Below are positions 1,785 through 43,829 of a stretch of 64,000 bases of DNA, in pieces. A program made the position numbers and the translations under genes. How positions within the stretch are numbered: position 1 is the first letter of the stretch; every line of letters starts with the position of its first letter. This DNA is from an uncultured Bacilli bacterium (GTDB lineage Bacteria; Bacillota_I; Bacilli_A; RF39; UBA660), in the NCBI GenBank assembly GCA_910585045.1, contig CAJUCD010000003.1, positions 42,779 to 106,778 of the forward strand. Reading direction: 5' to 3'. Below the pieces are notes generated by a model. That model was not told where the DNA came from, did not search any database, and saw nothing but the letters and a program-made list of their open reading frames with translations.

Positions 1785-1879
1785 TTCCTTTCTAAATGTT
1801 ACTTATTATATACAATTGTAAAAGATATTGCAATATGATTTGGTCTTATGATATATTTAAAAAGTTAGGAGTAGAAAGT

Positions 1880-4033
1880 ATGGATCAAAATATTATAAAA
1901 AATATATGTTTAGAATTAAGTGTTAAAGAATTTCAGGTAAATAATACCCTTAATTTATTAAGTGAAGGAGCAACGATTCCTTTTATTGCAAGATATAGAA
2001 AGGAAGCGACAGGTAATTTAGATGAAAATCAAATTAGTAAGATTAATGAAGTATATACTTATCAAGTTAATTTATTAAAAAGAAAAGAAGATGTAATTCG
2101 TTTAATAGATGAAAAAGGTTTACTGACTGATGAATTAAGAGAAAGTATTATGGCTGCTTCTAAATTAGTAGAAATAGAAGATTTATATAGACCTTTTAAA
2201 GAAAAAAAGAAAACAAAAGCTACAGAAGCAATTAAGTTAGGTTTAGAACCATTAGCTAAAGAAATTTTTAGAGAAAATAAAAATATTAGAGAAGAAGCGA
2301 AAAAGTATTTAAATGATAAAGTATTAGATATAGATTTTGCTTTGGAACAAGCTAATTATATTGTGGCAGAAAGCATAAGTGATAATGCTAATTTTAGAAA
2401 GTATATTAGAGCTAATACTTTTAAGTTTGGAATATTAAAAACTAGTAAAAAGAAAAAAGCAGAAGATGAAAATCAAGTTTATGAGATGTATTATGATTAT
2501 AGTGAACCAGTTAAGAATGTTAAGCAGCATAGAGTTTTAGCTATTAATCGAGGAGAGAAAGAAGGCGTATTATCTGTTAGTATAGATACTAATAATGAGT
2601 ATTTAGAAAATTATTTAAAAGGAAAATTGATTCATAAAAATAATGAAGATACAACTAAATTATTAGAGTTAGCTATTAAGGATGCTTTAAAAAGATTGAT
2701 TCTTCCAAGTGTGGAAAGAGAAATTAGAAGTGAATTAACAGAAAATGCAGAAGTTTCTGCGATAAGTAATTTTAGTAAGAATTTATATAATTTGCTGATG
2801 CAACCGCCAATTAAAAGTAAAACTGTTTTAGGATTTGATCCAGCATTTAGAACAGGCTGTAAATTAGCTGTAATATCTGGAACAGGTGAAATGGAACATA
2901 TAGATGTTATTTATCCTCATGAACCTAAGAATGAGATAGAGAAATCTAAAGCTAAAATTTTAGATTTAATAAGTAAATATAATGTTGATATAATTGCTAT
3001 TGGAAATGGAACTGCTTCTAGAGAAAGTGAAGCATTTGTAGCTAAAGTTATAAAAGAAGCTACAAGACCAGTTTCTTATATTATTGTAAATGAAGCAGGG
3101 GCTAGTGTTTATTCTGCTAGTAAATTAGCTCAAACAGAATTTCCTACTTTACATGTGGAGGAACGTAGTGCTGTATCAATTGCAAGACGTCTTATTGATC
3201 CATTATCTGAACTAGTTAAAATTGAACCTAAAAGTATTGGTGTAGGTATGTATCAACATGATGTTTCTGAAAAAAAGCTTGACGAAGAATTGACATTTGT
3301 AGTATCTACTGCAGTTAACAGTGTTGGAGTAAATGTAAATACAGCATCTAGAGAGTTGTTAAATTATATTTCTGGAATGAATAAAAAGATGATTGATAAA
3401 TTAATGGAATATAAGAAAAGCTGTGGTAAAATTTTGGAAAGAAAAGAGTTATCTAAAGTTTTTAGTGCAAAAGTTTATGAGCAAGCAATTGGTTTTTTAA
3501 GAATTCCTGATGGTAGTAATATTCTGGATAAAACAGCAATACATCCTGAAAGTTATAATATTGCTTTACAGATTTTAAATTTGTTTAGTTTATCTTTAAG
3601 TGATATAGGAGGTGAAAAGATAGGTAAAGTTTTAGCATCAGTTGATTGTGAAGATTTAGCAAATAAACTTAATTCAGATCCTTATACTGTCGAAGATATT
3701 ATTAAATGTTTTATTTCGCCACTTAGAGATCCACGCGATTCTATAAAAGCTCCAATTTTAAAAAGTGATATTTTAACGTTAGAAGATTTGAGTATTGGAA
3801 TGGAACTCGAAGGAGTAGTTAGAAATGTTATTGATTTTGGAGCATTTATAGATATAGGCCTTAAAAATGATGGTTTAGTGCATATTTCGCAAATAAGTGA
3901 GGATTATATAAAGCATCCTAATGAAGTGTTAAATGTAGGGGATATAGTAAAATGTTATGTTTTAGATATCAATACAGAAAAAAAGAAGGTTGCCTTAACA
4001 CTTATTGCCAATAATGTTAAAATAATAAAATAA
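1880..4033 (+). CDS. tex: transcription accessory protein Tex (YqgF/RNase H-like, HhH and C-terminal S1 domains)
   Basis: Conserved Tex N-terminus (IPFIARYRKEATGNLDE) and a C-terminal S1 domain (GMELEGVVRNVIDFGAFIDIG...DGLVHISQI). The likely true start is the ATG at 1880 preceded by AGGAG; the track start at 1796 is a leader extension. Confidence 0.9.
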   Translation: MDQNIIKNICLELSVKEFQVNNTLNLLSEGATIPFIARYRKEATGNLDENQISKINEVYTYQVNLLKRKEDVIRLIDEKGLLTDELRESIMAASKLVEIEDLYRPFKEKKKTKATEAIKLGLEPLAKEIFRENKNIREEAKKYLNDKVLDIDFALEQANYIVAESISDNANFRKYIRANTFKFGILKTSKKKKAEDENQVYEMYYDYSEPVKNVKQHRVLAINRGEKEGVLSVSIDTNNEYLENYLKGKLIHKNNEDTTKLLELAIKDALKRLILPSVEREIRSELTENAEVSAISNFSKNLYNLLMQPPIKSKTVLGFDPAFRTGCKLAVISGTGEMEHIDVIYPHEPKNEIEKSKAKILDLISKYNVDIIAIGNGTASRESEAFVAKVIKEATRPVSYIIVNEAGASVYSASKLAQTEFPTLHVEERSAVSIARRLIDPLSELVKIEPKSIGVGMYQHDVSEKKLDEELTFVVSTAVNSVGVNVNTASRELLNYISGMNKKMIDKLMEYKKSCGKILERKELSKVFSAKVYEQAIGFLRIPDGSNILDKTAIHPESYNIALQILNLFSLSLSDIGGEKIGKVLASVDCEDLANKLNSDPYTVEDIIKCFISPLRDPRDSIKAPILKSDILTLEDLSIGMELEGVVRNVIDFGAFIDIGLKNDGLVHISQISEDYIKHPNEVLNVGDIVKCYVLDINTEKKKVALTLIANNVKIIK

Positions 4034-4048
4034 ATTGTATAAAAAGTG

Positions 4049-4077
4049 TTGCATAAACCTTTTTTTTCTGATATGAT
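4049..4077 (+). promoter_or_regulatory. sigma-A-like promoter for the tasA-like operon: TTGCAT, 17-nt spacer, TATGAT
   Basis: -35 TTGCAT at 4049-4054, 17-nt spacer, -10 TATGAT at 4072-4077. It sits about 25 nt upstream of the RBS AAAGGAGG. Confidence 0.35.
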
Positions 4078-4101
4078 TTTTACAGTAAAGGAGGTCAAAC
4101 C

Positions 4102-4791
4102 ATGGAAAAGAAAAATACAGTTCTATTAACAGTTATTGCAGTAGCAACATTATTAGTTGCAGTAGTAGGAGCTACATTTGCGTACTTTACTGCTACAAAT
4201 GGTACAACAGGTGATGCAACTGGTACTACTGATGTAAAAACTGCTGAATCTGTTGCTGGTGTAACATTAAATTTTGGTAAAGTTAATCCTAGTTCTAATG
4301 TTGTTTATCCAGGTACTATGAATTATATTGGAGCTACAGTTGCTGCAGAATTAGAAGCTGGAAAAACAGGAACTTATAATTCAACTTATACTTTAAACGG
4401 AAGTGTAACTTTATCTGAAGCTTTTGTTTTTGAAGTTAATTATAGTTTATATGAAACTTCTACTCCATTAGCTGAAGGACAAACACCAGTTACTTGTGAT
4501 CCAGTTGCCAATAAAGGTACTGCTACAGAGATTAAATATTCTCAATCTTGTACAGTTAATGCTGGTTTAGGAACTAAGATTGATTCTGCTAGTGGTACAA
4601 TAGCTGCTGGTGATACTACTGCTACAATTGCTTTTAGTGGCAATGTAAATACTGGTTCGACTAAGTATTATTATTTAGTAGTAGAGTATCCAGAAAAAGA
4701 TGTAGATCAAAATGCTGATGCTGGTAATAAAACTATTACTCTAGCTATTGATTCTGTTGTTCCAGTTGGAAGTACTCCTGTTAATCAATAA
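4102..4791 (+). CDS. TasA/camelysin-like secreted fibre protein with SipW-cognate signal peptide
   Basis: N-terminus MEKKNTVLLTVIAVATLLVAVVGATFAYFTATNG matches the SipW-cognate signal class (hydrophobic stretch followed by AYF[ST]). Strong RBS AAAGGAGG. Thr/Gly-rich beta-type composition. Shares the motif TKYYYLVVEYPEKDVDQ with the protein at 14523. Confidence 0.7.
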   Translation: MEKKNTVLLTVIAVATLLVAVVGATFAYFTATNGTTGDATGTTDVKTAESVAGVTLNFGKVNPSSNVVYPGTMNYIGATVAAELEAGKTGTYNSTYTLNGSVTLSEAFVFEVNYSLYETSTPLAEGQTPVTCDPVANKGTATEIKYSQSCTVNAGLGTKIDSASGTIAAGDTTATIAFSGNVNTGSTKYYYLVVEYPEKDVDQNADAGNKTITLAIDSVVPVGSTPVNQ

Positions 4792-4812
4792 GATATTGAA
4801 TAGCAAAATTGA

Positions 4813-4839
4813 AAATCTATCAAATGATAGATTTTTTTT
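4813..4839 (+). terminator. rho-independent terminator (AAATCTATC-aaat-GATAGATTT + T-run)
   Basis: Perfect 9-bp stem followed by TTTTT, seen directly after the stop codon. Confidence 0.5.
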
Positions 4840-4926
4840 GTAGAACTAATACTAAATATCTTGAAATATGTCGAATTGTTTGGTAATATAAAAGTATAGT
4901 ATATATAATAGTTGTGGAGGCGTATT

Positions 4927-5526
4927 ATGAAGTTACATTCTAGTGAGAAGACAATTTTGTTAGCGATTGTTGTGTGTGTGTTGTTAATTTCTGGGGGATA
5001 TTCTTTTGCGTATTTTGTTAGTAATGGAGCTAATGTTACAGGTGAAGGAGGATCAACTAATATAAGTACTGCTAAGCTTATTAATGTTAAGTATGATGCT
5101 GGTTCTAGTAGTATTTCACTTGCAAATGCTTTACCAGGAGTAAAGTCAAGTAAGAATTTTAATATTACAGTAACTCCTATTGAGTCACAAAATACTGCTA
5201 ATTATACAATTAAATTGGTTATTAATTCTAATACTTTTGTTAAATGTACAGATGCTAATTATAATGCTAATAGTAATGCTTGTGTTAAAGATAGTGAAGA
5301 ACTTGTTTATACTTTGACTGATAGTGAAGGTGGAGTTTTTACAGGAGATATTACAGGAAAAACTGGTGAGATAGTATTGTTAAATGAAAGAAAAACAACT
5401 GCAGTAGAAGAAGTTTATAATTATACTTTAGAAGTAAGTTATAAGAATACAGGTGCGGATCAAAATCATAATTTTAATAAGACTTTAGAAGCTTTATTAA
5501 AAGTAGAACCTACAAAGGAAAATTAG
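4927..5526 (+). CDS. second SipW-cognate secreted protein (TasA-like paralog, about 200 aa)
   Basis: N-terminal TM segment followed by GGYSFAYFVSNGANVTGEGG, the same signal class. RBS GGAGG at 4916-4920. Start chosen at the ATG at 4927 (MKLHSSEK). Confidence 0.6.
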   Translation: MKLHSSEKTILLAIVVCVLLISGGYSFAYFVSNGANVTGEGGSTNISTAKLINVKYDAGSSSISLANALPGVKSSKNFNITVTPIESQNTANYTIKLVINSNTFVKCTDANYNANSNACVKDSEELVYTLTDSEGGVFTGDITGKTGEIVLLNERKTTAVEEVYNYTLEVSYKNTGADQNHNFNKTLEALLKVEPTKEN

Positions 5527-5634
5527 AAGCGATTATTTTCGCTTTTTTTATTTATTTGGAAGATATTTTACTATTTTATTATTGCGAATAAGAGCGCATT
5601 GTGTTATACTTTTTAATAGTAGGGAGTGTCAGTT

Positions 5635-8400
5635 ATGGATGATATGAATTTACAAGAACAGTATGCAATACTAGAAAAAGAAAGGGAAGAAGATAAAAGA
5701 AAAACTATTATAATTATAATTTTATGTATTTTAATTATATTAATTACCCTATTAGGATTGTATTTTGCTTATTCTAATGTTGGTAAAACTTGTACTTTGA
5801 ATTGTGATACCAATGGTGATGGAATTCCTGATACTAACTTAGATATTGATGGTGATGGAATTTGTGATATTAATTGCTTGGTTACTGGTAAAGATGGCAA
5901 GGAATATATGATAAATATTGATTACAATGGTGATAGAAAAGCACATTTTAATGTTGATACTGATGGTGATGGAATTCCTGATGTTAACTTAGTTAATAAA
6001 GATATTAATGGTGATGGAATTTGTGATTTTAACTGTGATATTGATGGTGATGGAAGGCCAGATATTAATATTGATTTAGATAACACTAATACATGTGATT
6101 TAAATTGCGATACCAATGGTGATGGCAAACCAGATATTAATATTGATACTAATGGAGATGGTAAATGCGATCTTAACTGTGATACTACGGGAGATGGAAG
6201 ACCAAATATAAACATTGATACCAATGGTGATGGAAAATGTGATCTTAACTGTGATACTAATGGAGATGGCAAACCAGATATTAATATTGATATTGATGGT
6301 GATAAAAAACCAGATATTAATATTGATATCAATGGAGATGGTAAACCAGACATAAATATTGATACTGATGGTGATGGCAAACCAGATATAAATATTGATT
6401 ATGATGGTGATGGAAAATGTGATTTCAACTGCGATACTAATGGTGATGGCAAACCAGATGATAATCTTATGAATCAAGATACCAATGGCGATGGTAAATG
6501 CGATCTTAACTGTGATACAAATGGCAATGGTAAACCAGATATTAATATTGATACTAATGGTGATGGCAAACCAGACATAAATGTTGATACTAATGGTGAT
6601 GGTAAACCAGATATAAATATTGATGTTGATAAAGATAAAAAACCAGATATAAATGTTGATACCAATGGCGATGGTAAACCAGATGATAATCTTATGAATC
6701 AAGACACAAACGGTGATGGAAAATGTGATTTCAACTGCGATACTAATGGAGATGGTTTCCCAGATATAAATATTGATATTGATGGTGATGGCAAATGCGA
6801 CCTTAACTGTGACACAGATGGTGATGGCAAATGTGATGTTAACTGCGATACTAATGGCGATGGTAAACCAGATATTAATATAGATGAAACTGGCGATGGC
6901 AAATGTGACATCAATTGTGATACTAATGGTGATGGCAAATGTGATGTTAACTGTGATACAGATAGTGATGGCAAATGTGATGTTAATTGTGACACCAATG
7001 GCGATGGTAAACCAGATATAAATATTGATACCAATGGTGATGGCAAATGTGATTTCAACTGCGACACAGATGGTGATGGTAAACCAGATGATAATCTTAT
7101 GAATCAAGATACAGATGGTGATGGTAAATGTGATCTTAACTGTGATACTAATGGAGATGGAAAGCCAGATATAAATATTGATAATAACGGTGACGGAAAG
7201 CCAGATACTAATATTGATACTAATGGTGATGGCAAACCAGATATTAATATTGATGTTGATAAAGATGGTAGACCAGATGTTAATATAGACACAGATGGTG
7301 ATAAAAAACCAGATGATAATCTTATGAATCAAGATACCAATGGCGATGGCAAATGTGATCTTAACTGTGACACAGATGGTGATGGGTTCCCAGATATAAA
7401 TATTGATATAGATGGCGATAAAGTTTGCGATTTAAATTGCGATAATGATGGCGATGGAAAATGTGATCTTAACTGTGATACAGATGGTGATGGCAAACCA
7501 GATACTAATATTGATACAGATGGCGATGGAAAGCCAGATAAAGATATAGATAAAGATGGTGACGGCAAACCAGATACTAATGTGGATAAAGATGGCGATG
7601 GTAATTGTGATTTAAATTGTGATGTTGATAAAGATGGTGTATGTGATTATAATTGTGACACCAATGGTGATGGAATTTGTGATTATAATTGTACAACTAC
7701 TTTTGAAAAGAATGCTAATTTAAAATCATTAACTATAAATAATTATGCTTTAAGTCCAGTATTTAATGAAAACATTACTAGCTATACAATAAGAGTTGGT
7801 TATAATACAAATAAAGTTAATATTAAAGCTGTTCCTGCTAATCCTAAAGCTACAGTGACTGGTGATGGAGAAGTAGTTCTTACAGGTAGTACAACATATA
7901 CTTCAGTAGTTGTAACTGCAGAGGATGGTACTAAGAAAACATATAATATAACAATTATTAAGAGTGATAAACCTGGTACTTCTGAGGGTGGAGACGATAA
8001 TGATAAAGTTGAAATTGAAAATGGTTCTTTAATTGTTAATTATACAAAAGATATTAATGTTAATAATATTTATCCAAAATGGAGAGGTTCTCAAACATTT
8101 ACAATAACTAATAAATCTAAGTCAACTGTAACTTATAATATTAATTTGAAAAATGTTATAAATACATTTAATAGTGATGACTTTAAATATACTTTATTTA
8201 AGGATAATGTGGTTTTAGTTAAACAAACTCCTGCTCCTAGAAAAGATGGCTCTATATATCAAAACTTAGTTCTTGCAGCTGGTGAATCTGCTACATTTGA
8301 ATTAAGATTTGAGTTTGTAGAAACTGGAAAGCCACAAGATGCTGATATAGGAGTACGTTATTCTTCTAAAGTAGAAATTAGTATTGTGTCTGTAAATTAA
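5635..8400 (+). CDS. large secreted repeat protein. It has a SipW-type signal anchor, about 45 tandem acidic Ca-binding-type repeats (DxNGDGKPDINID / CDLNCD, resembling thrombospondin type-3 repeats), and a C-terminal cadherin-like Ig/beta-sandwich region.
   Basis: Protein reads ...LLGLYFAYSNVGKTCTLNCDTNGDGIPD..., then dozens of DTNGDGKPDINID and CDLNCD units, ending in ...NANLKSLTINNYALSPVFNENITSYTIRVGYNT... (cadherin-like). RBS AGGGAG at 5621-5626. The ATG at 5635 is the likely start; the track used a GTG at 5626. Confidence 0.8.
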   Translation: MDDMNLQEQYAILEKEREEDKRKTIIIIILCILIILITLLGLYFAYSNVGKTCTLNCDTNGDGIPDTNLDIDGDGICDINCLVTGKDGKEYMINIDYNGDRKAHFNVDTDGDGIPDVNLVNKDINGDGICDFNCDIDGDGRPDINIDLDNTNTCDLNCDTNGDGKPDINIDTNGDGKCDLNCDTTGDGRPNINIDTNGDGKCDLNCDTNGDGKPDINIDIDGDKKPDINIDINGDGKPDINIDTDGDGKPDINIDYDGDGKCDFNCDTNGDGKPDDNLMNQDTNGDGKCDLNCDTNGNGKPDINIDTNGDGKPDINVDTNGDGKPDINIDVDKDKKPDINVDTNGDGKPDDNLMNQDTNGDGKCDFNCDTNGDGFPDINIDIDGDGKCDLNCDTDGDGKCDVNCDTNGDGKPDINIDETGDGKCDINCDTNGDGKCDVNCDTDSDGKCDVNCDTNGDGKPDINIDTNGDGKCDFNCDTDGDGKPDDNLMNQDTDGDGKCDLNCDTNGDGKPDINIDNNGDGKPDTNIDTNGDGKPDINIDVDKDGRPDVNIDTDGDKKPDDNLMNQDTNGDGKCDLNCDTDGDGFPDINIDIDGDKVCDLNCDNDGDGKCDLNCDTDGDGKPDTNIDTDGDGKPDKDIDKDGDGKPDTNVDKDGDGNCDLNCDVDKDGVCDYNCDTNGDGICDYNCTTTFEKNANLKSLTINNYALSPVFNENITSYTIRVGYNTNKVNIKAVPANPKATVTGDGEVVLTGSTTYTSVVVTAEDGTKKTYNITIIKSDKPGTSEGGDDNDKVEIENGSLIVNYTKDINVNNIYPKWRGSQTFTITNKSKSTVTYNINLKNVINTFNSDDFKYTLFKDNVVLVKQTPAPRKDGSIYQNLVLAAGESATFELRFEFVETGKPQDADIGVRYSSKVEISIVSVN
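5790..7700 (+). repeat. in-frame coding tandem repeats (39-54 nt units) encoding D-x-[ND]-G-D-G-K-[PC]-D loops
   Basis: Highly periodic ggtgatgg(c/t)aaaccagat / tgtgat(c/t)ttaactgtgat units are visible in the DNA. Confidence 0.8.
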
Positions 8401-8499: not shown

Positions 8500-9255
8500 G
8501 TGAAAGCACAAAGTAGTTTGTCAGCTAATAAATTTTTGAAAGTGTTTGGAAAAATTGTTTCTTGGGCCCTTTTCATTGTACTTGTAGTAGCGGCTGTCTT
8601 TTTATTATATTATTATATTGCTACAAAAATATATACCGCTAAAGGTCCAGGTTATGAGCCTAAATTTTCTATTTATACAATAATAAGTGGATCTATGGAG
8701 CCTAATATAAAGGTTTATGATACTGTAATTAATGAACGTATTGACAATCCTAATGATATTGTTGTAGGTGATGTTATAACTTTTATATCTACAAGTTTAT
8801 TGTCGCCTGGGACGACTATAACGCACCGTGTTATTGCTCTTACAACAGATGAAAATGGTAATATTTGTTATCAAACTAAAGGAGATAATAATGCAGTGGC
8901 AGATCAAGCTTGCGCTAAATTTCATAACGTTTTAGGTAAGGTTATTCTTAAAATACCACAATTAGGTAGGGTTCAATTCTTTTTGGCCTCAAAAGCTGGA
9001 TGGTTATTATGTATTTTAATTCCTGCTTTAATTATTATTGGTAGAGATATTATGCGAATTACTAAATTGACTGCAATTAAGAAAACTACTCAAAAAATTA
9101 ATGATAAAGAGAAAAAAGATCCTAAAAAGATAGTTTTTGAACAGGGTAGAAAAGAAAATTTAAAAAGAAAATTGTTAAATGATGTTAATGAGTCTAAATA
9201 TTATTATGAAGATCCAAAAGTGATTGAAATTGATAGACAAAAGAAAAGGAAATAG
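8500..9255 (+). CDS. sipW: signal peptidase I, SipW/archaeal-eukaryal S26 type, with a Lys-rich C-terminal tail
   Basis: N-terminal TM segment, the catalytic box IISGSMEPNIKVYDTVI (SGSMEP), and a second conserved block GDNNAVADQ. GTG start after AGGAGG. Confidence 0.75.
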   Translation: MKAQSSLSANKFLKVFGKIVSWALFIVLVVAAVFLLYYYIATKIYTAKGPGYEPKFSIYTIISGSMEPNIKVYDTVINERIDNPNDIVVGDVITFISTSLLSPGTTITHRVIALTTDENGNICYQTKGDNNAVADQACAKFHNVLGKVILKIPQLGRVQFFLASKAGWLLCILIPALIIIGRDIMRITKLTAIKKTTQKINDKEKKDPKKIVFEQGRKENLKRKLLNDVNESKYYYEDPKVIEIDRQKKRK

Positions 9256-10494
9256 TTATTTATTTCCTTTTTTGTTAAACTCTTTAGCTAAATAGCCACT
9301 GCGTTTTAATTTATTGTAGCTGTGTTCATTTATAATGAGGTCAAATTCGCCAATAAATTCATAAATATGGGGATTAAATCCAATTTTGAAATCATTTAAG
9401 CCTTTAAATGGGTTAGTTTTGGAGAAGTCTCCAGTTAAACCGTTTAAGTCTAAGAATTTAAAGTCATTTTTATAATATTCAATAATTCTATTATGTAAAT
9501 AATAATTAGCATTAAAATGTTTATAGGTTCTATCTATGCCACTTATTACAATATTAACGCGATTTTGATATTTAATGACAAATGCTCCTGCAACGTAAGT
9601 TGATAAATTGTCACGTAGTCCTTTAGTGGCTATTTCAATATCATTTTTGTAAGATAATAGGGCTTTATCAGAATTTAATTTTTGATTAATATTTATTTCA
9701 CTAGCATCATTAATTACTTTCTCGCTTAAGGTATTATTTAAAATTAATTCTTTATCGTATAATTCTTTAACGCTTAAAAGATATTTTTCATAATTTATTT
9801 TTACTAAAAATATATCACATGAATTATCTTTTTCAAAAATGTTATAATAGTTTTTATAATAATATTCGTTTATATTTCTTTGCTTTTTTATAAATTCATA
9901 AAGAATATCTAATCCTTCACGATCAGATTTTTCTAAGATTAAACCTTTTTTTTCGGCTTTGCGTATTTTATTTTTTGTGTTTTTACTTAAATTTTCAAAT
10001 CTATATTCATCTAAATTTATAATTCCATTGAATCTAGGGAATAGTGCCTCAAAATAAAGGTTATCTTTTAATTTGTTATAATTAAATTCTTTTAAATAAT
10101 CTCGAATAATTATATTTTGATTATAATTTGTTAGTTTAGAGTATTTGTTAATTTCACCAATAGCTATTTCAGGATTAATTTTAATAAAAGCAAGTTTTTT
10201 ATTATAGTATTTTTTTAAGGCTATAGTAAAATTTTTTAATAAATCATAATCGAAGTAGTCAATTAAAAATCCTTTAGGAGAGTAGCCATATTTTAAAGAA
10301 ATAGTTATTTTTTTAATTAGTATTAATGCTGCTGCTTTTATTATGCCTAATTCATCAACATATCCAATTAGTTCATAATCATAGTTGCTTTCAGCCATAA
10401 GAAGGGCATAATTGGAACTTTGATGATAAGAGCCTAAAGGACTTGTTTTGGCAAAAGCATCAAATTCAGCAATAGTTAATTCTTTTAAATGCAT
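9256..10494 (-). CDS. FemAB-family peptidoglycan interpeptide-bridge aminoacyltransferase (412 aa)
   Basis: Size matches the family, and the N-terminal pattern (...FAKTSPLGSYHQSSNYALLMAESNYDYELIGY...) is typical of FemX/MurM-like proteins. Assignment by recollection only. Confidence 0.5.
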   Translation of the reverse strand: MHLKELTIAEFDAFAKTSPLGSYHQSSNYALLMAESNYDYELIGYVDELGIIKAAALILIKKITISLKYGYSPKGFLIDYFDYDLLKNFTIALKKYYNKKLAFIKINPEIAIGEINKYSKLTNYNQNIIIRDYLKEFNYNKLKDNLYFEALFPRFNGIINLDEYRFENLSKNTKNKIRKAEKKGLILEKSDREGLDILYEFIKKQRNINEYYYKNYYNIFEKDNSCDIFLVKINYEKYLLSVKELYDKELILNNTLSEKVINDASEININQKLNSDKALLSYKNDIEIATKGLRDNLSTYVAGAFVIKYQNRVNIVISGIDRTYKHFNANYYLHNRIIEYYKNDFKFLDLNGLTGDFSKTNPFKGLNDFKIGFNPHIYEFIGEFDLIINEHSYNKLKRSGYLAKEFNKKGNK

Positions 10495-42463: not shown

Positions 42464-43829
42464 TAGTATTAATTTTAAAACGTTAGTTTATTTAGTAGCT
42501 TTTAGTGTTACGATATTACTTTTTTTAATATTTTCTCAAAGTATTTTATTAAAATATTCTTATGAAAGATATCAAACTGATAAGATTAAGAAAATTGTAA
42601 AGTCAGTACAGGATTATGATGCAGATGATATTTTTCATAATTTAGAAACGTTAGTTTATGATAATAGTGTATGTGCGCAATATATTTTTGATGGTGGAAA
42701 TAATATTTCTTATAATACTTTAATGGTTGGCTGTGGGCTTAATAAAAATAATACACAAATTGTTGAACTAATGAATAATATTATGTCTGATAATAAGGAT
42801 GTACAATATATAAAATTGATAAATAAAAAAACAGATACAAAAGCTATTTTAACTGGTATTAAGGTAGATAAAGGGTATTTATTTATATATTCTCCTTTAG
42901 AAGATTTAGCAGGGGCTAATATTGTTCTTAGAAGTCAAGTTATTTTTATTACTTGTATAGTAATAATTCTTGCTTGTTTTATATCTTATTTTTTATCTAA
43001 TAAAATTACAGACCCAATAATGAAAATTACTCGTAAGGCTAAGGAATTAGGTGAAGGAAATTATAATATTGAGTTTGATTCTAGTGATGTATTAGAAATT
43101 GATGAACTGGCTAATACTTTAAATCATGTAAGTAGAGATTTATCAAAGATAGATGAACTTAGACGAGACTTGATGGCTAATGTATCTCATGATTTAAAAA
43201 CTCCTTTAACTATGATTAGAGCTTATGCTGAAATGATAAGAGATATCTCTTATAAAGATAAAGTAAAAATGGATAAAGATTTAAGTGTTATAATAGAGGA
43301 AACAGAGAGACTAAATGTATTAGTTAATGATATTTTAGATTTGTCTAAGATGCAAGCGGATGCAGATAGTCTTAACATTGAGCAGTTTGATTTATGTGAG
43401 CTTATTAAGGAAGTTATGAGAAGATATGATATTTTAAAAACAACAGAAGATTATAATTTTATTATGGAACTTCCTGATAATGCTAAAGTTAGTGCAGATA
43501 AGCAAAAGATGATGCAAGTTATTTATAATTTAATTAATAATGCTATAAATTATACTGGTGATGATAAAAAGGTATTTATAAAAGTTAGTAAAGTTAAAAA
43601 AGAATATTTAGTGGAAATTAAAGATACTGGAAAAGGAATAAAAAAAGAAGAAATTCCATATATATGGGATAAATATTATAAAAAAGATAAGAAACATCAA
43701 AGAAATGTAGTTTCGACAGGAATTGGCTTATCGATTGTAAAAGAAATTCTTACTAAGCATAAATTTGATTATGGTGTAAAGAGTGTTCCTAAGAAAGGTA
43801 CAACATTTTATTTTAAAATTAAGAAGTAG
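42441..43829 (+). CDS. sensor histidine kinase (HAMP, HisKA, HATPase_c)
   Basis: H-box ANVSHDLKTPLTMI and N/G boxes (NLINNAINYT, DTGKGI, STGIGLSIV). The start is uncertain: TTG at 42441 or ATG at 42402. Both overlap the regulator gene. Confidence 0.8.
   Translation: MKLKRKTNSINFKTLVYLVAFSVTILLFLIFSQSILLKYSYERYQTDKIKKIVKSVQDYDADDIFHNLETLVYDNSVCAQYIFDGGNNISYNTLMVGCGLNKNNTQIVELMNNIMSDNKDVQYIKLINKKTDTKAILTGIKVDKGYLFIYSPLEDLAGANIVLRSQVIFITCIVIILACFISYFLSNKITDPIMKITRKAKELGEGNYNIEFDSSDVLEIDELANTLNHVSRDLSKIDELRRDLMANVSHDLKTPLTMIRAYAEMIRDISYKDKVKMDKDLSVIIEETERLNVLVNDILDLSKMQADADSLNIEQFDLCELIKEVMRRYDILKTTEDYNFIMELPDNAKVSADKQKMMQVIYNLINNAINYTGDDKKVFIKVSKVKKEYLVEIKDTGKGIKKEEIPYIWDKYYKKDKKHQRNVVSTGIGLSIVKEILTKHKFDYGVKSVPKKGTTFYFKIKK

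Follow-up and report, generated by a model that had tools for sequence, protein, structure and literature searches.

A gene in a 64,000 nt stretch of DNA from an uncultured Bacilli bacterium (hereafter the window; positions 42,779 to 106,778 of the forward strand of contig CAJUCD010000003.1, GenBank assembly GCA_910585045.1) codes for a protein that is, over most of its length, a tandem array of short, aspartate-rich repeats. It lies between the genes for two small secreted proteins and the gene for a SipW-type signal peptidase (Table 1), and the question posed by the locus is what the repeat is, and what a protein of this construction does there. We consider the chances somewhat better than even that it is a modular surface protein, serving as an accessory or base subunit of a SipW-dependent, TasA-like fibre locus, in which a stalk of predicted calcium loops presents a TasA-like module.

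The 12-Residue Repeat Unit

When the protein is split at each D-x-[DN], the array resolves into one 12-residue unit, D-x-[DN]-G-D-G-K-[P/C]-D-[ILV]-N-[I/C], which is found 48 times by a strict pattern and 51 times by a looser one. A preliminary description of this DNA, made from the letters and a list of open reading frames (ORFs), had proposed about 45 calcium-type repeats with a second motif, CDLNCD, interleaved between them; the repeat is borne out but the interleaving is not, as there is a single unit that ends in one of two tails, KPDINI or KCDLNC. Nineteen units carry Cys at both positions 8 and 12, and 27 have Pro8 together with Ile, Leu or Val at position 12. Five variants are 15 residues long, four of them ending in PDDNLMNQ and one in PDVNLVNK; the PDDNLMNQ copies, which recur at distances of 75 or 135 residues, mark higher-order blocks of 75 amino acids (aa) that were duplicated recently. 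The near-pure repeat region that had been described earlier extends over aa 61-689 (639 residues), and contains 175 Asp, 91 Gly, 88 Asn, 52 Ile, 50 Lys and 43 Cys. At the DNA level, Tandem Repeats Finder reports a period of 36 nt over 6109-7588 (40 copies, 65% matches), as well as higher-order periods of 108 nt and 225 nt (76–82% matches). The tandem periodicity noted previously is therefore real, with units of 36 nt (45 nt in the variants) and not 39-54 nt.

Conservation was assessed over 2,067 units from 120 homologues, among which D1 and D/N3 (100%) are fixed by the search pattern. The consensus residues are G4 (71%), D5 (96%), G6 (85%), D9 (94%; 1,938/2,067) and N11 (85%), while position 10 is aliphatic and position 12 is either aliphatic or Cys. 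A Dx[DN]xDG sequence suffices for calcium binding if another Asp follows it, even at a distance of only two residues (Rigden et al. 2011, PMC3123361). In the window protein, 48 units fit the pattern D-x-[DN]-[GDNKS]-[DN]-[GKDNRS] of this linear motif and Asp9 supplies the acidic residue shortly past it; with a complete motif plus Asp9 in every unit, the earlier proposal of calcium-type loops holds.

The cysteines of the repeat are paired, as had been noticed from the sequence of the window protein. Cys8 and Cys12 occur together in 175 of the 2,067 units, Cys8 alone in one, and Cys12 alone in none. Since lone Cys-type units stand between Pro-type units, the partner of each Cys must lie within the same unit (C-D-x-N-C). 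To judge from this covariation, positions 8 and 12 behave as a contacting pair, filled either by Pro and an aliphatic residue or by two cysteines, and the latter may form a disulfide, a metal site or something else. Most homologous arrays are without any Cys; Cys-type units are almost confined to the membrane-anchored family described below, and do not occur in the sortase-anchored giant proteins.

An array in which 27% of the residues are Asp could instead be a disordered, highly acidic spacer or cation sink, like the Ser-Asp repeats of staphylococci, with neither defined calcium sites nor a fold. Such a spacer fits the AlphaFold2 prediction for ten in-register units (24-row alignment), which gave a predicted local distance difference test (pLDDT) score of 47 and no confident fold, and also the NCBIfam results, in which the models for ClfA, ClfB, SdrC and SdrD (MSCRAMM, NF033609 and related) matched by their Ser-Asp repeat parts only. 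Being limited to Ser-Asp regions and scoring about 10% of the cut-offs (130.5 bits against 1150), these matches are compositional. A match of the repeat region to the sulphur globule protein family was rejected on the same grounds. Against plain low complexity, the conservation of G4, G6, D9, N11 and the aliphatic positions 10 and 12 is position-specific over the 2,067 units, which argues for a defined local structure, as does the covariation of positions 8 and 12, and we regard the disordered spacer as rather unlikely. The array resembles the ClfA/Sdr stalks in being an acidic low-complexity segment between a membrane or wall anchor and functional domains, but its unit is a specific 12-residue calcium motif in place of an SD dipeptide, and there is no A-domain and there are no B-repeats.

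Comparison with Known Calcium-Binding Repeats

The preliminary description had likened the array to thrombospondin type-3 repeats, and true homology would imply a thrombospondin-like calcium 'wire' with disulfides between motifs. There are real likenesses: contiguous DxDxDG sites, little regular secondary structure, Cys pairs that flank D-x-N in both, and an extracellular, calcium-dependent structural role (predicted in the case of the array), and thrombospondin is itself a recognised Dx[DN]xDG context (PMC3123361; compare PF02412 and structure 1UX6). However, the Pfam model TSP_3 (PF02412) did not match the whole protein at E ≤ 0.1 or three repeat fragments at E ≤ 10 (the HMMER filters may hide matches above about 0.1), and no thrombospondin or COMP chain in the PDB was found with the protein (E ≤ 1) or with the repeat profile (E ≤ 10). 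The array also differs in its strict 12-residue period and in having a Cys pair that is optional and intra-unit (i, i+4) instead of running from motif to motif, and the majority of homologous arrays are Cys-free. The family identity suggested earlier was thus not upheld, and true homology is improbable; as far as can be judged from sequence, the array resembles thrombospondin type-3 repeats in principle and is not a member of that family.

The only calcium-site model to reach its cut-off was FG-GAP (PF01839), with 30.5 bits on three units (cut-off 22.1), aligned over profile positions 8-18 of 37 only. The loop of the FG-GAP 'calcium blades' (PMC3123361), D-x-N-G-D-G-x-x-D-[aliphatic], is like that of the array, with ligands expected at positions 1, 3, 5, 7 and 9. 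In contrast to these blades, the array has no propeller strands, its loops follow one another head-to-tail about 50 times, and 11/37 blade positions match. A whole FG-GAP/integrin beta-propeller blade was ruled out, because the calcium loop alone was aligned and the period is 12 and not ~60 residues. FG-GAP_3 and EF-hand_5 stayed below their cut-offs (EF-hand_5, 17.9 bits against 25.9), Dockerin_1 was rejected at E 5.5, and the window protein had no match to any RTX or type I secretion model. The RTX nonapeptide beta-roll is similar in having short, tandem, Gly/Asp-rich calcium repeats, where folding is expected only with extracellular Ca2+, but its motif is GGxGxDxUx and its period is 9 residues instead of 12.

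Searches of the PDB with the protein and with a 24-row, in-register repeat profile returned no significant chain, filamin and polcalcin appearing as noise at E > 0.02, and a literature text search for the peptide strings of the repeat found no relevant paper. While Dx[DN]xDG sites, stalk repeats and SipW/TasA operons are already known, the strict, concatenated 12-residue loop is new by comparison with the copies of Pfam, NCBIfam and the PDB that were searched, which held no model or structure of it. The switch of the unit from Pro/Ile to Cys/Cys is also new, and so is the placing of the array inside a TasA-family protein, behind its signal and ahead of its body.

C-Terminal Domains

A Cadherin-like beta-sandwich had been predicted to follow the array, and this is confirmed by a match to PF12733 that is above the cut-off (aa 699-778, E 8.9e-9, 36.1 bits against 24.2, profile positions 1-87 of 89). 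AlphaFold2 modelled aa 691-924 (33-row alignment) with a pLDDT of 88.6, as two beta-sandwiches with a disordered acidic linker between them.

The last sandwich (aa ~802-923) has no Pfam match of its own. A profile built from it retrieved 2,347 representative proteins at E ≤ 1e-3 and 1,141 at E ≤ 1e-10 (1.84 billion searched), and many of these relatives are proteins of 150–250 aa in which the domain comes right behind a signal peptide. Small secreted relatives were found at E 1e-21 to 1e-49, and 43 of them were compared with the models of the TasA/camelysin/BsaA superfamily (PF12389, TIGR04090 and NF046066): 12/43 match PF12389 (Peptidase_M73, camelysin/TasA), several above the cut-off, 8/43 match TIGR04090 (BsaA-family SipW-dependent biofilm matrix protein), and 2/43 match TasA. 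Because these small relatives match PF12389, TIGR04090 or TasA, the last sandwich is assigned, by transitive homology and with a predicted fold, to the TasA superfamily. The top PDB sequence matches of the domain profile were both TasA (5of1 and 8aur), at weak scores (E 0.11–0.19).

The same relatives tie the end domain to the two secreted proteins encoded upstream. Direct comparison of the C-terminal domain with these proteins was weak (BLASTP E 0.02; first hhalign, 38% probability), and the link became clear only once the small relatives were included: the expanded C-terminal-domain family matches the family of the 229 aa protein in a profile-profile comparison with 98% probability (E 2.8e-14, 161 columns). 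From this match, the end domain is homologous to both upstream proteins.

The SipW/TasA-Like Locus

The coordinates of the locus are collected in Table 1.

Table 1. Features of the repeat-protein gene and its surroundings (window positions).
Feature	Position	Strand	Basis or remark
229 aa secreted protein	4102..4791	+	SipW-cognate-like signal ...VGATFAYFTA; hydrophobic N-terminus
204 aa paralogue of the 229 aa protein	4912..5526	+	signal ...GGYSFAYFVS; hydrophobic N-terminus
Terminator-like hairpin 5' of the repeat-protein gene	5525..5546	+	consensus scan only
Promoter-like site after the upstream hairpin	5582-5610		consensus scan only
Repeat-protein gene	5635..8400	+	single unbroken ORF, 921 aa from ATG; alternative GTG at 5626 giving 924 aa
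N-terminal hydrophobic segment (aa 27-47)	5704..5775	+	read from sequence; DKRK before, G-L-Y-F-A-Y-S (aa 44-50) after
Repeat array (aa 56-689), ~48-51 units	5791..7692	+	Tandem Repeats Finder, pattern splitting, FG-GAP Ca-loop match
Cadherin-like beta-sandwich (aa 699-778)	7720..7959	+	PF12733; AlphaFold2 block pLDDT 87-97
Flexible acidic linker (aa 786-798)	7981..8019	+	AlphaFold2 pLDDT <50, model residues 96-108
Predicted C-terminal beta-sandwich, TasA/camelysin/BsaA superfamily by transitive homology (aa ~802-923)	8029..8397	+	
Terminator-like hairpin directly past the stop codon	8399..8417	+	consensus scan only
SipW/archaeal-type signal peptidase I	8500..9255	+	TIGR02228, E 1.3e-26, 93.3 bits against cut-off 51.85
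FemAB-family peptidyltransferase	9256..10494	minus	PF02388, E 7e-55

The preliminary call of a long ORF from the ATG at 5635 stands; that description did not mention the membrane segment at the N-terminus, the TasA-superfamily domain or the SipW-type surroundings of the gene. Since a GGGAG sequence, resembling a ribosome-binding site, occupies 5623-5627, 7 nt ahead of the ATG, and the gene call in an independent contig (L012, see below) begins at the corresponding ATG, this start is favoured over the GTG and the product is likely to be of 921 aa. Residue numbers throughout this text count from the GTG (924 aa version) and not from the ATG; an exact look-up of the 924 aa product gave no record. 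The labels L001–L014 denote the loci of homologues that were compared, and P-numbers the homologous repeat proteins.

The 229 aa protein, a likely fibre subunit, has 1,917 homologues and its family has no Pfam model; its match to TIGR04088 is weak (E 0.036, below the cut-off). In 41 sequences of this family that are only 37–57% identical overall, the N-terminal 17 residues A15-A31 (ATLLVAVVGATFAYFTA) are invariant, as are C132 and C150. The relationship of the 204 aa protein to it is seen with a hidden Markov model of the 229 aa family (E 1.3e-12) and by BLASTP of the N-termini (E 7e-4).

Orthologues of the peptidase (E 1e-62 to 1e-99) are encoded directly 3' of the repeat gene in L001, L002, L008, L011 and L013, and in total a SipW-type peptidase gene lies directly downstream in six loci representing two synteny types, among them distant relatives whose other neighbors are unrelated. 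The synteny of L001 is that of the window, with Tex and the two TasA-like subunits. In the window, the FemAB-family gene is convergent with the peptidase gene and abuts it, and the same is true of L001.

The homologous proteins fall into subfamilies with differing gene neighborhoods. Members of 650–700 aa (P0098 in L002, P0085 in L008, P0116 in L011 and P0074 in L013) share the gene order ftsE, ftsX, M23 (PcsB-like) peptidase, lipoprotein, repeat protein, SipW-type peptidase, which puts the TasA-like/SipW pair beside cell-separation machinery. A third subfamily has a conserved cytoplasmic N-domain of ~95 aa and is encoded after a DUF2357 gene (P0104 in L005, P0053 in L009, P0096 in L010 and P0032 in L014), ahead of which is the gene for a 501 aa membrane protein in L005 and L010. 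The repeat gene of this subfamily is upstream of PBP2B-MraY-FtsW in L005 and L009 and, in L010, of an S26 peptidase and a 1,288 aa immunoglobulin (Ig)-like surface protein.

These neighborhoods allow for another role, in which the family serves wall growth or division as a wall-spanning ruler or sensor acting with FtsEX-PcsB or PBP2B-FtsW. The gene of the 650–700 aa subfamily always follows the ftsE-ftsX-M23 peptidase-lipoprotein group, another subfamily precedes PBP2B-MraY-FtsW, and a FemAB gene adjoins the window locus; however, Tex and two TasA-like subunits take the place of these neighbors in the window and in L001, the end domain comes from a family of secreted matrix proteins, and closeness to division genes is no evidence of interaction. 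We consider a role of this kind very unlikely.

The N-Terminal Segment

The hydrophobic segment at the N-terminus of the repeat protein is predicted to act as a signal anchor, or else as a long signal peptide of the SipW type, and its cleavage status is likewise a matter of prediction. A hydrophobic stretch, beginning at residue 24-101, is present in 57/57 family members. The GLYFAYS motif that follows it in the window protein resembles the G-A-T-F-A-Y-F and G-Y-S-F-A-Y-F of the two upstream proteins. In the small relatives of the end domain, the AYF motif sits immediately before the sandwich, while in the window protein the two are ~750 residues apart.

If the segment is cleaved, the protein would be released: the SipW-type peptidase would cut after ...LYFA and before YS, and the new N-terminal strand and the TasA-like sandwich would lie at opposite ends of a long tether, dependent on calcium, by which matrix fibres are cross-linked or extended. 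The G-x-x-F-A-Y common to the repeat protein and the two upstream substrates, the position of the motif in the small relatives, the conserved adjacency of the peptidase and the 43-residue signal sequence of TapA, a SipW substrate (PMC10151520), are all in keeping with release. Yet the motif is weakly kept in orthologues (YFSIS, FFTRS, WFSYK), many members have cytoplasmic N-domains of 35–100 residues, which are more anchor-like, and TIGR04088 does not match the large protein. Release is conceivable, and we hold it to be doubtful.

Distribution of the Repeat

At least 917 proteins in the database, from Firmicutes of the gut and elsewhere, contain the repeat, always next to the membrane or wall anchor. 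Among the best 120 matches, about half have no TasA-like domain; these are proteins of 1,200–1,576 aa with domains of the Ig-like, InlB-B and MucBP kind. In at least 35 of these giants, an array of Pro-type units stops 10–40 residues short of a sorting motif (xPxTGD or xxT[GS]D), which is followed by a hydrophobic segment and a basic tail. The membrane-anchored family, to which the window protein belongs, carries the array directly behind the N-terminal transmembrane segment. In both types of protein, the array separates the anchor from the functional domains, which is the position expected of a wall-spanning stalk. A 570 aa protein with 20 Pro-type units (P0008; L006, 6001..7713) is encoded among small ORFs beside a REP_ORF2-G2P rolling-circle replication gene, a setting that points to carriage of the repeat by a phage or plasmid-like element as well.

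Copy Number and Divergence of the Repeats

The 36 nt units have a mean pairwise identity of 70% and no two are identical, in disagreement with the preliminary description of them as highly similar. Units that code for identical peptides still differ in 3–14% of their bases, and the longest exact repeat inside the gene is 44 nt.

Because the DNA copies are so diverged, an assembly artefact is unlikely. The source is a metagenome-assembled genome (MAG) contig named NODE_7, and a short-read assembly of this kind could in principle create or miscount repeats; an independent k-mer assembly does break within the array. That assembly (Logan, run SRR27283106; L012) corresponds to window positions 3332..6264 at 99.8% identity with no indels, and thus recovers, in another sample, the first 630 nt of the array (~13 units), beyond which the copy number rests on a single assembly. 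The MAG contig CAXHRJ010000001.1 ('uncultured Bacilli bacterium') is a 100% match. With a reading frame that stays open across 1.9 kb of repeats and with hundreds of homologues having the same repeat, the periodicity, for which an artefact had been named as the refuting explanation, is real, and an artefact in it or in the copy number is exceedingly unlikely.

Orthologues in a window-type synteny have far fewer units (P0001, 17; P0002 and P0003, 14 each; P0005, 18) than the ~50 of the window protein. Length variation, which had been foreseen, is therefore found among relatives, but the slippage proposed as its source becomes less likely with units that are only 70% identical on average, and the copy-number differences known to date separate species and not strains (in L001, the flanking Tex gene is 76% identical).

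Codon use in the array (5806..7695) departs from that of the Tex gene (1796..4033): AAC makes up 22% of Asn codons (2% in tex), GGC 30% of Gly codons (9%) and TGC 26% of Cys codons (12%), and the GC content is 33.5% compared with ~26%. This divergent codon use could reflect high expression, or selection for DNA-level diversity among the repeats. Long minus-strand ORFs span 5922..7568 within the array (6100..7332, coding for 410 aa, as well as 5922..6380, 6699..7067, 7104..7292 and 7329..7568); their Ile/Ser/Pro-rich, repetitive translations look like by-products of a stop-free repeat and not like genes.

Proposed Function

The features described above suggest how a stalk-bearing accessory subunit might work. 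The N-terminal hydrophobic segment would thread the chain through the membrane, leaving the N-terminus inside, and ~50 contiguous Dx[DN]GDGxxD loops would follow, each binding one Ca2+ through the side chains of residues 1, 3, 5 and 9 and the backbone of residue 7, as happens in the FG-GAP loops of integrins and at other sites of the Dx[DN]xDG type. Successive loops would be connected by the [ILV]-N-[I/C] tripeptide, with residues 8 and 12 in contact, either packed as Pro against Ile or stapled as two cysteines. With a net charge of some -2 to -3, each unit would be roughly neutralised by one Ca2+, and an acidic chain that would otherwise repel itself could stiffen into a stalk of sufficient length to span the wall. 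At its tip, the stalk would display the Cadherin-like sandwich and the TasA-superfamily sandwich, and the latter may dock onto, or nucleate, the fibres formed by the two upstream subunits after SipW processing. The repeat protein would then be the base, the anchor or an accessory subunit of the fibre, holding it at a wall-thickness distance from the membrane.

Several observations weigh against this proposal. Calcium binding by the repeat units is predicted from sequence, the PDB searches gave no solved homologue of the array, and its AlphaFold2 model was not confident. The TasA-family link is transitive, as neither aa 789-924 nor aa 691-924 matched PF12389 or TIGR04090 directly (E ≤ 10). Terminator-like hairpins occur on both sides of the repeat gene, and its grouping with the neighbors is known from gene order. 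Moreover, the 650–700 aa subfamily has no adjacent gene for a TasA-like subunit, with a lipoprotein gene and ftsEX-M23 there instead, and the third subfamily is usually without a nearby peptidase (L005, L009 and L014; the one in L010 is of the S26 type).

A dedicated SipW-type peptidase, TasA-superfamily subunits with cognate signals, and a larger accessory protein are also the components of tapA-sipW-tasA in B. subtilis, sipW-tasA-calY with CapP in B. cereus, and sipW-bsaA in C. perfringens (PMC9674648, PMC10151520, bioRxiv 10.1101/2024.02.27.582368, PMC11580942). The window accessory protein differs from those of the known SipW operons in having its TasA-like sandwich at the C-terminus, behind ~750 inserted residues. 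TapA, with its 43 aa signal and Ig-like domain, is found at the start of the filament, where it donates a strand and cannot accept one (PMC10151520). With ~750 residues between its AYF motif and its sandwich, the window protein could accept a strand from the upstream subunits without donating one, so that it appears to be TapA in reverse, with an acceptor-capable sandwich and no adjacent donor strand. In CapP of B. cereus, the variable, tandem-repeat C-terminal half has been implicated in cell-surface attachment; its repeats are QKKV/AEE, in contrast to the calcium-loop 12-mers of the window protein.

The same separation of strand and sandwich admits a bolder interpretation, which we put forward tentatively and think unlikely, namely that a TasA-type subunit has here been drawn out lengthwise. 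The signal and GLYFAYS strand of the protein would be split from the acceptor sandwich by ~750 residues that include ~50 calcium loops, ~40% of them with an intra-unit Cys-x3-Cys replacing Pro/Ile, to form a tether switchable by calcium and possibly by redox state or metal. A subunit of this design could fix the distance at which a donor-strand fibre stands off the membrane, or else cross-link fibres that lie far apart. The array of 12-mers would then be a new fold class of calcium 'wire', a wall-spanning stalk widely used in gut Firmicutes.

In the reading that we favor, a fibre accessory subunit carried on a calcium-dependent stalk, the locus brings the TasA/SipW biofilm-fibre system into uncultured, low-GC Bacilli and adds what may be a new type of accessory protein, with a TasA-like domain at the end of a stalk. 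The switch between Pro8/Ile12 and Cys8/Cys12 provides a constraint for solving the structure of the repeat. As the repeat is common and undescribed, a calcium-dependent stalk module would allow many large, unnamed surface proteins to be better annotated and, once defined, would tie the architecture of the cell surface to the availability of calcium.

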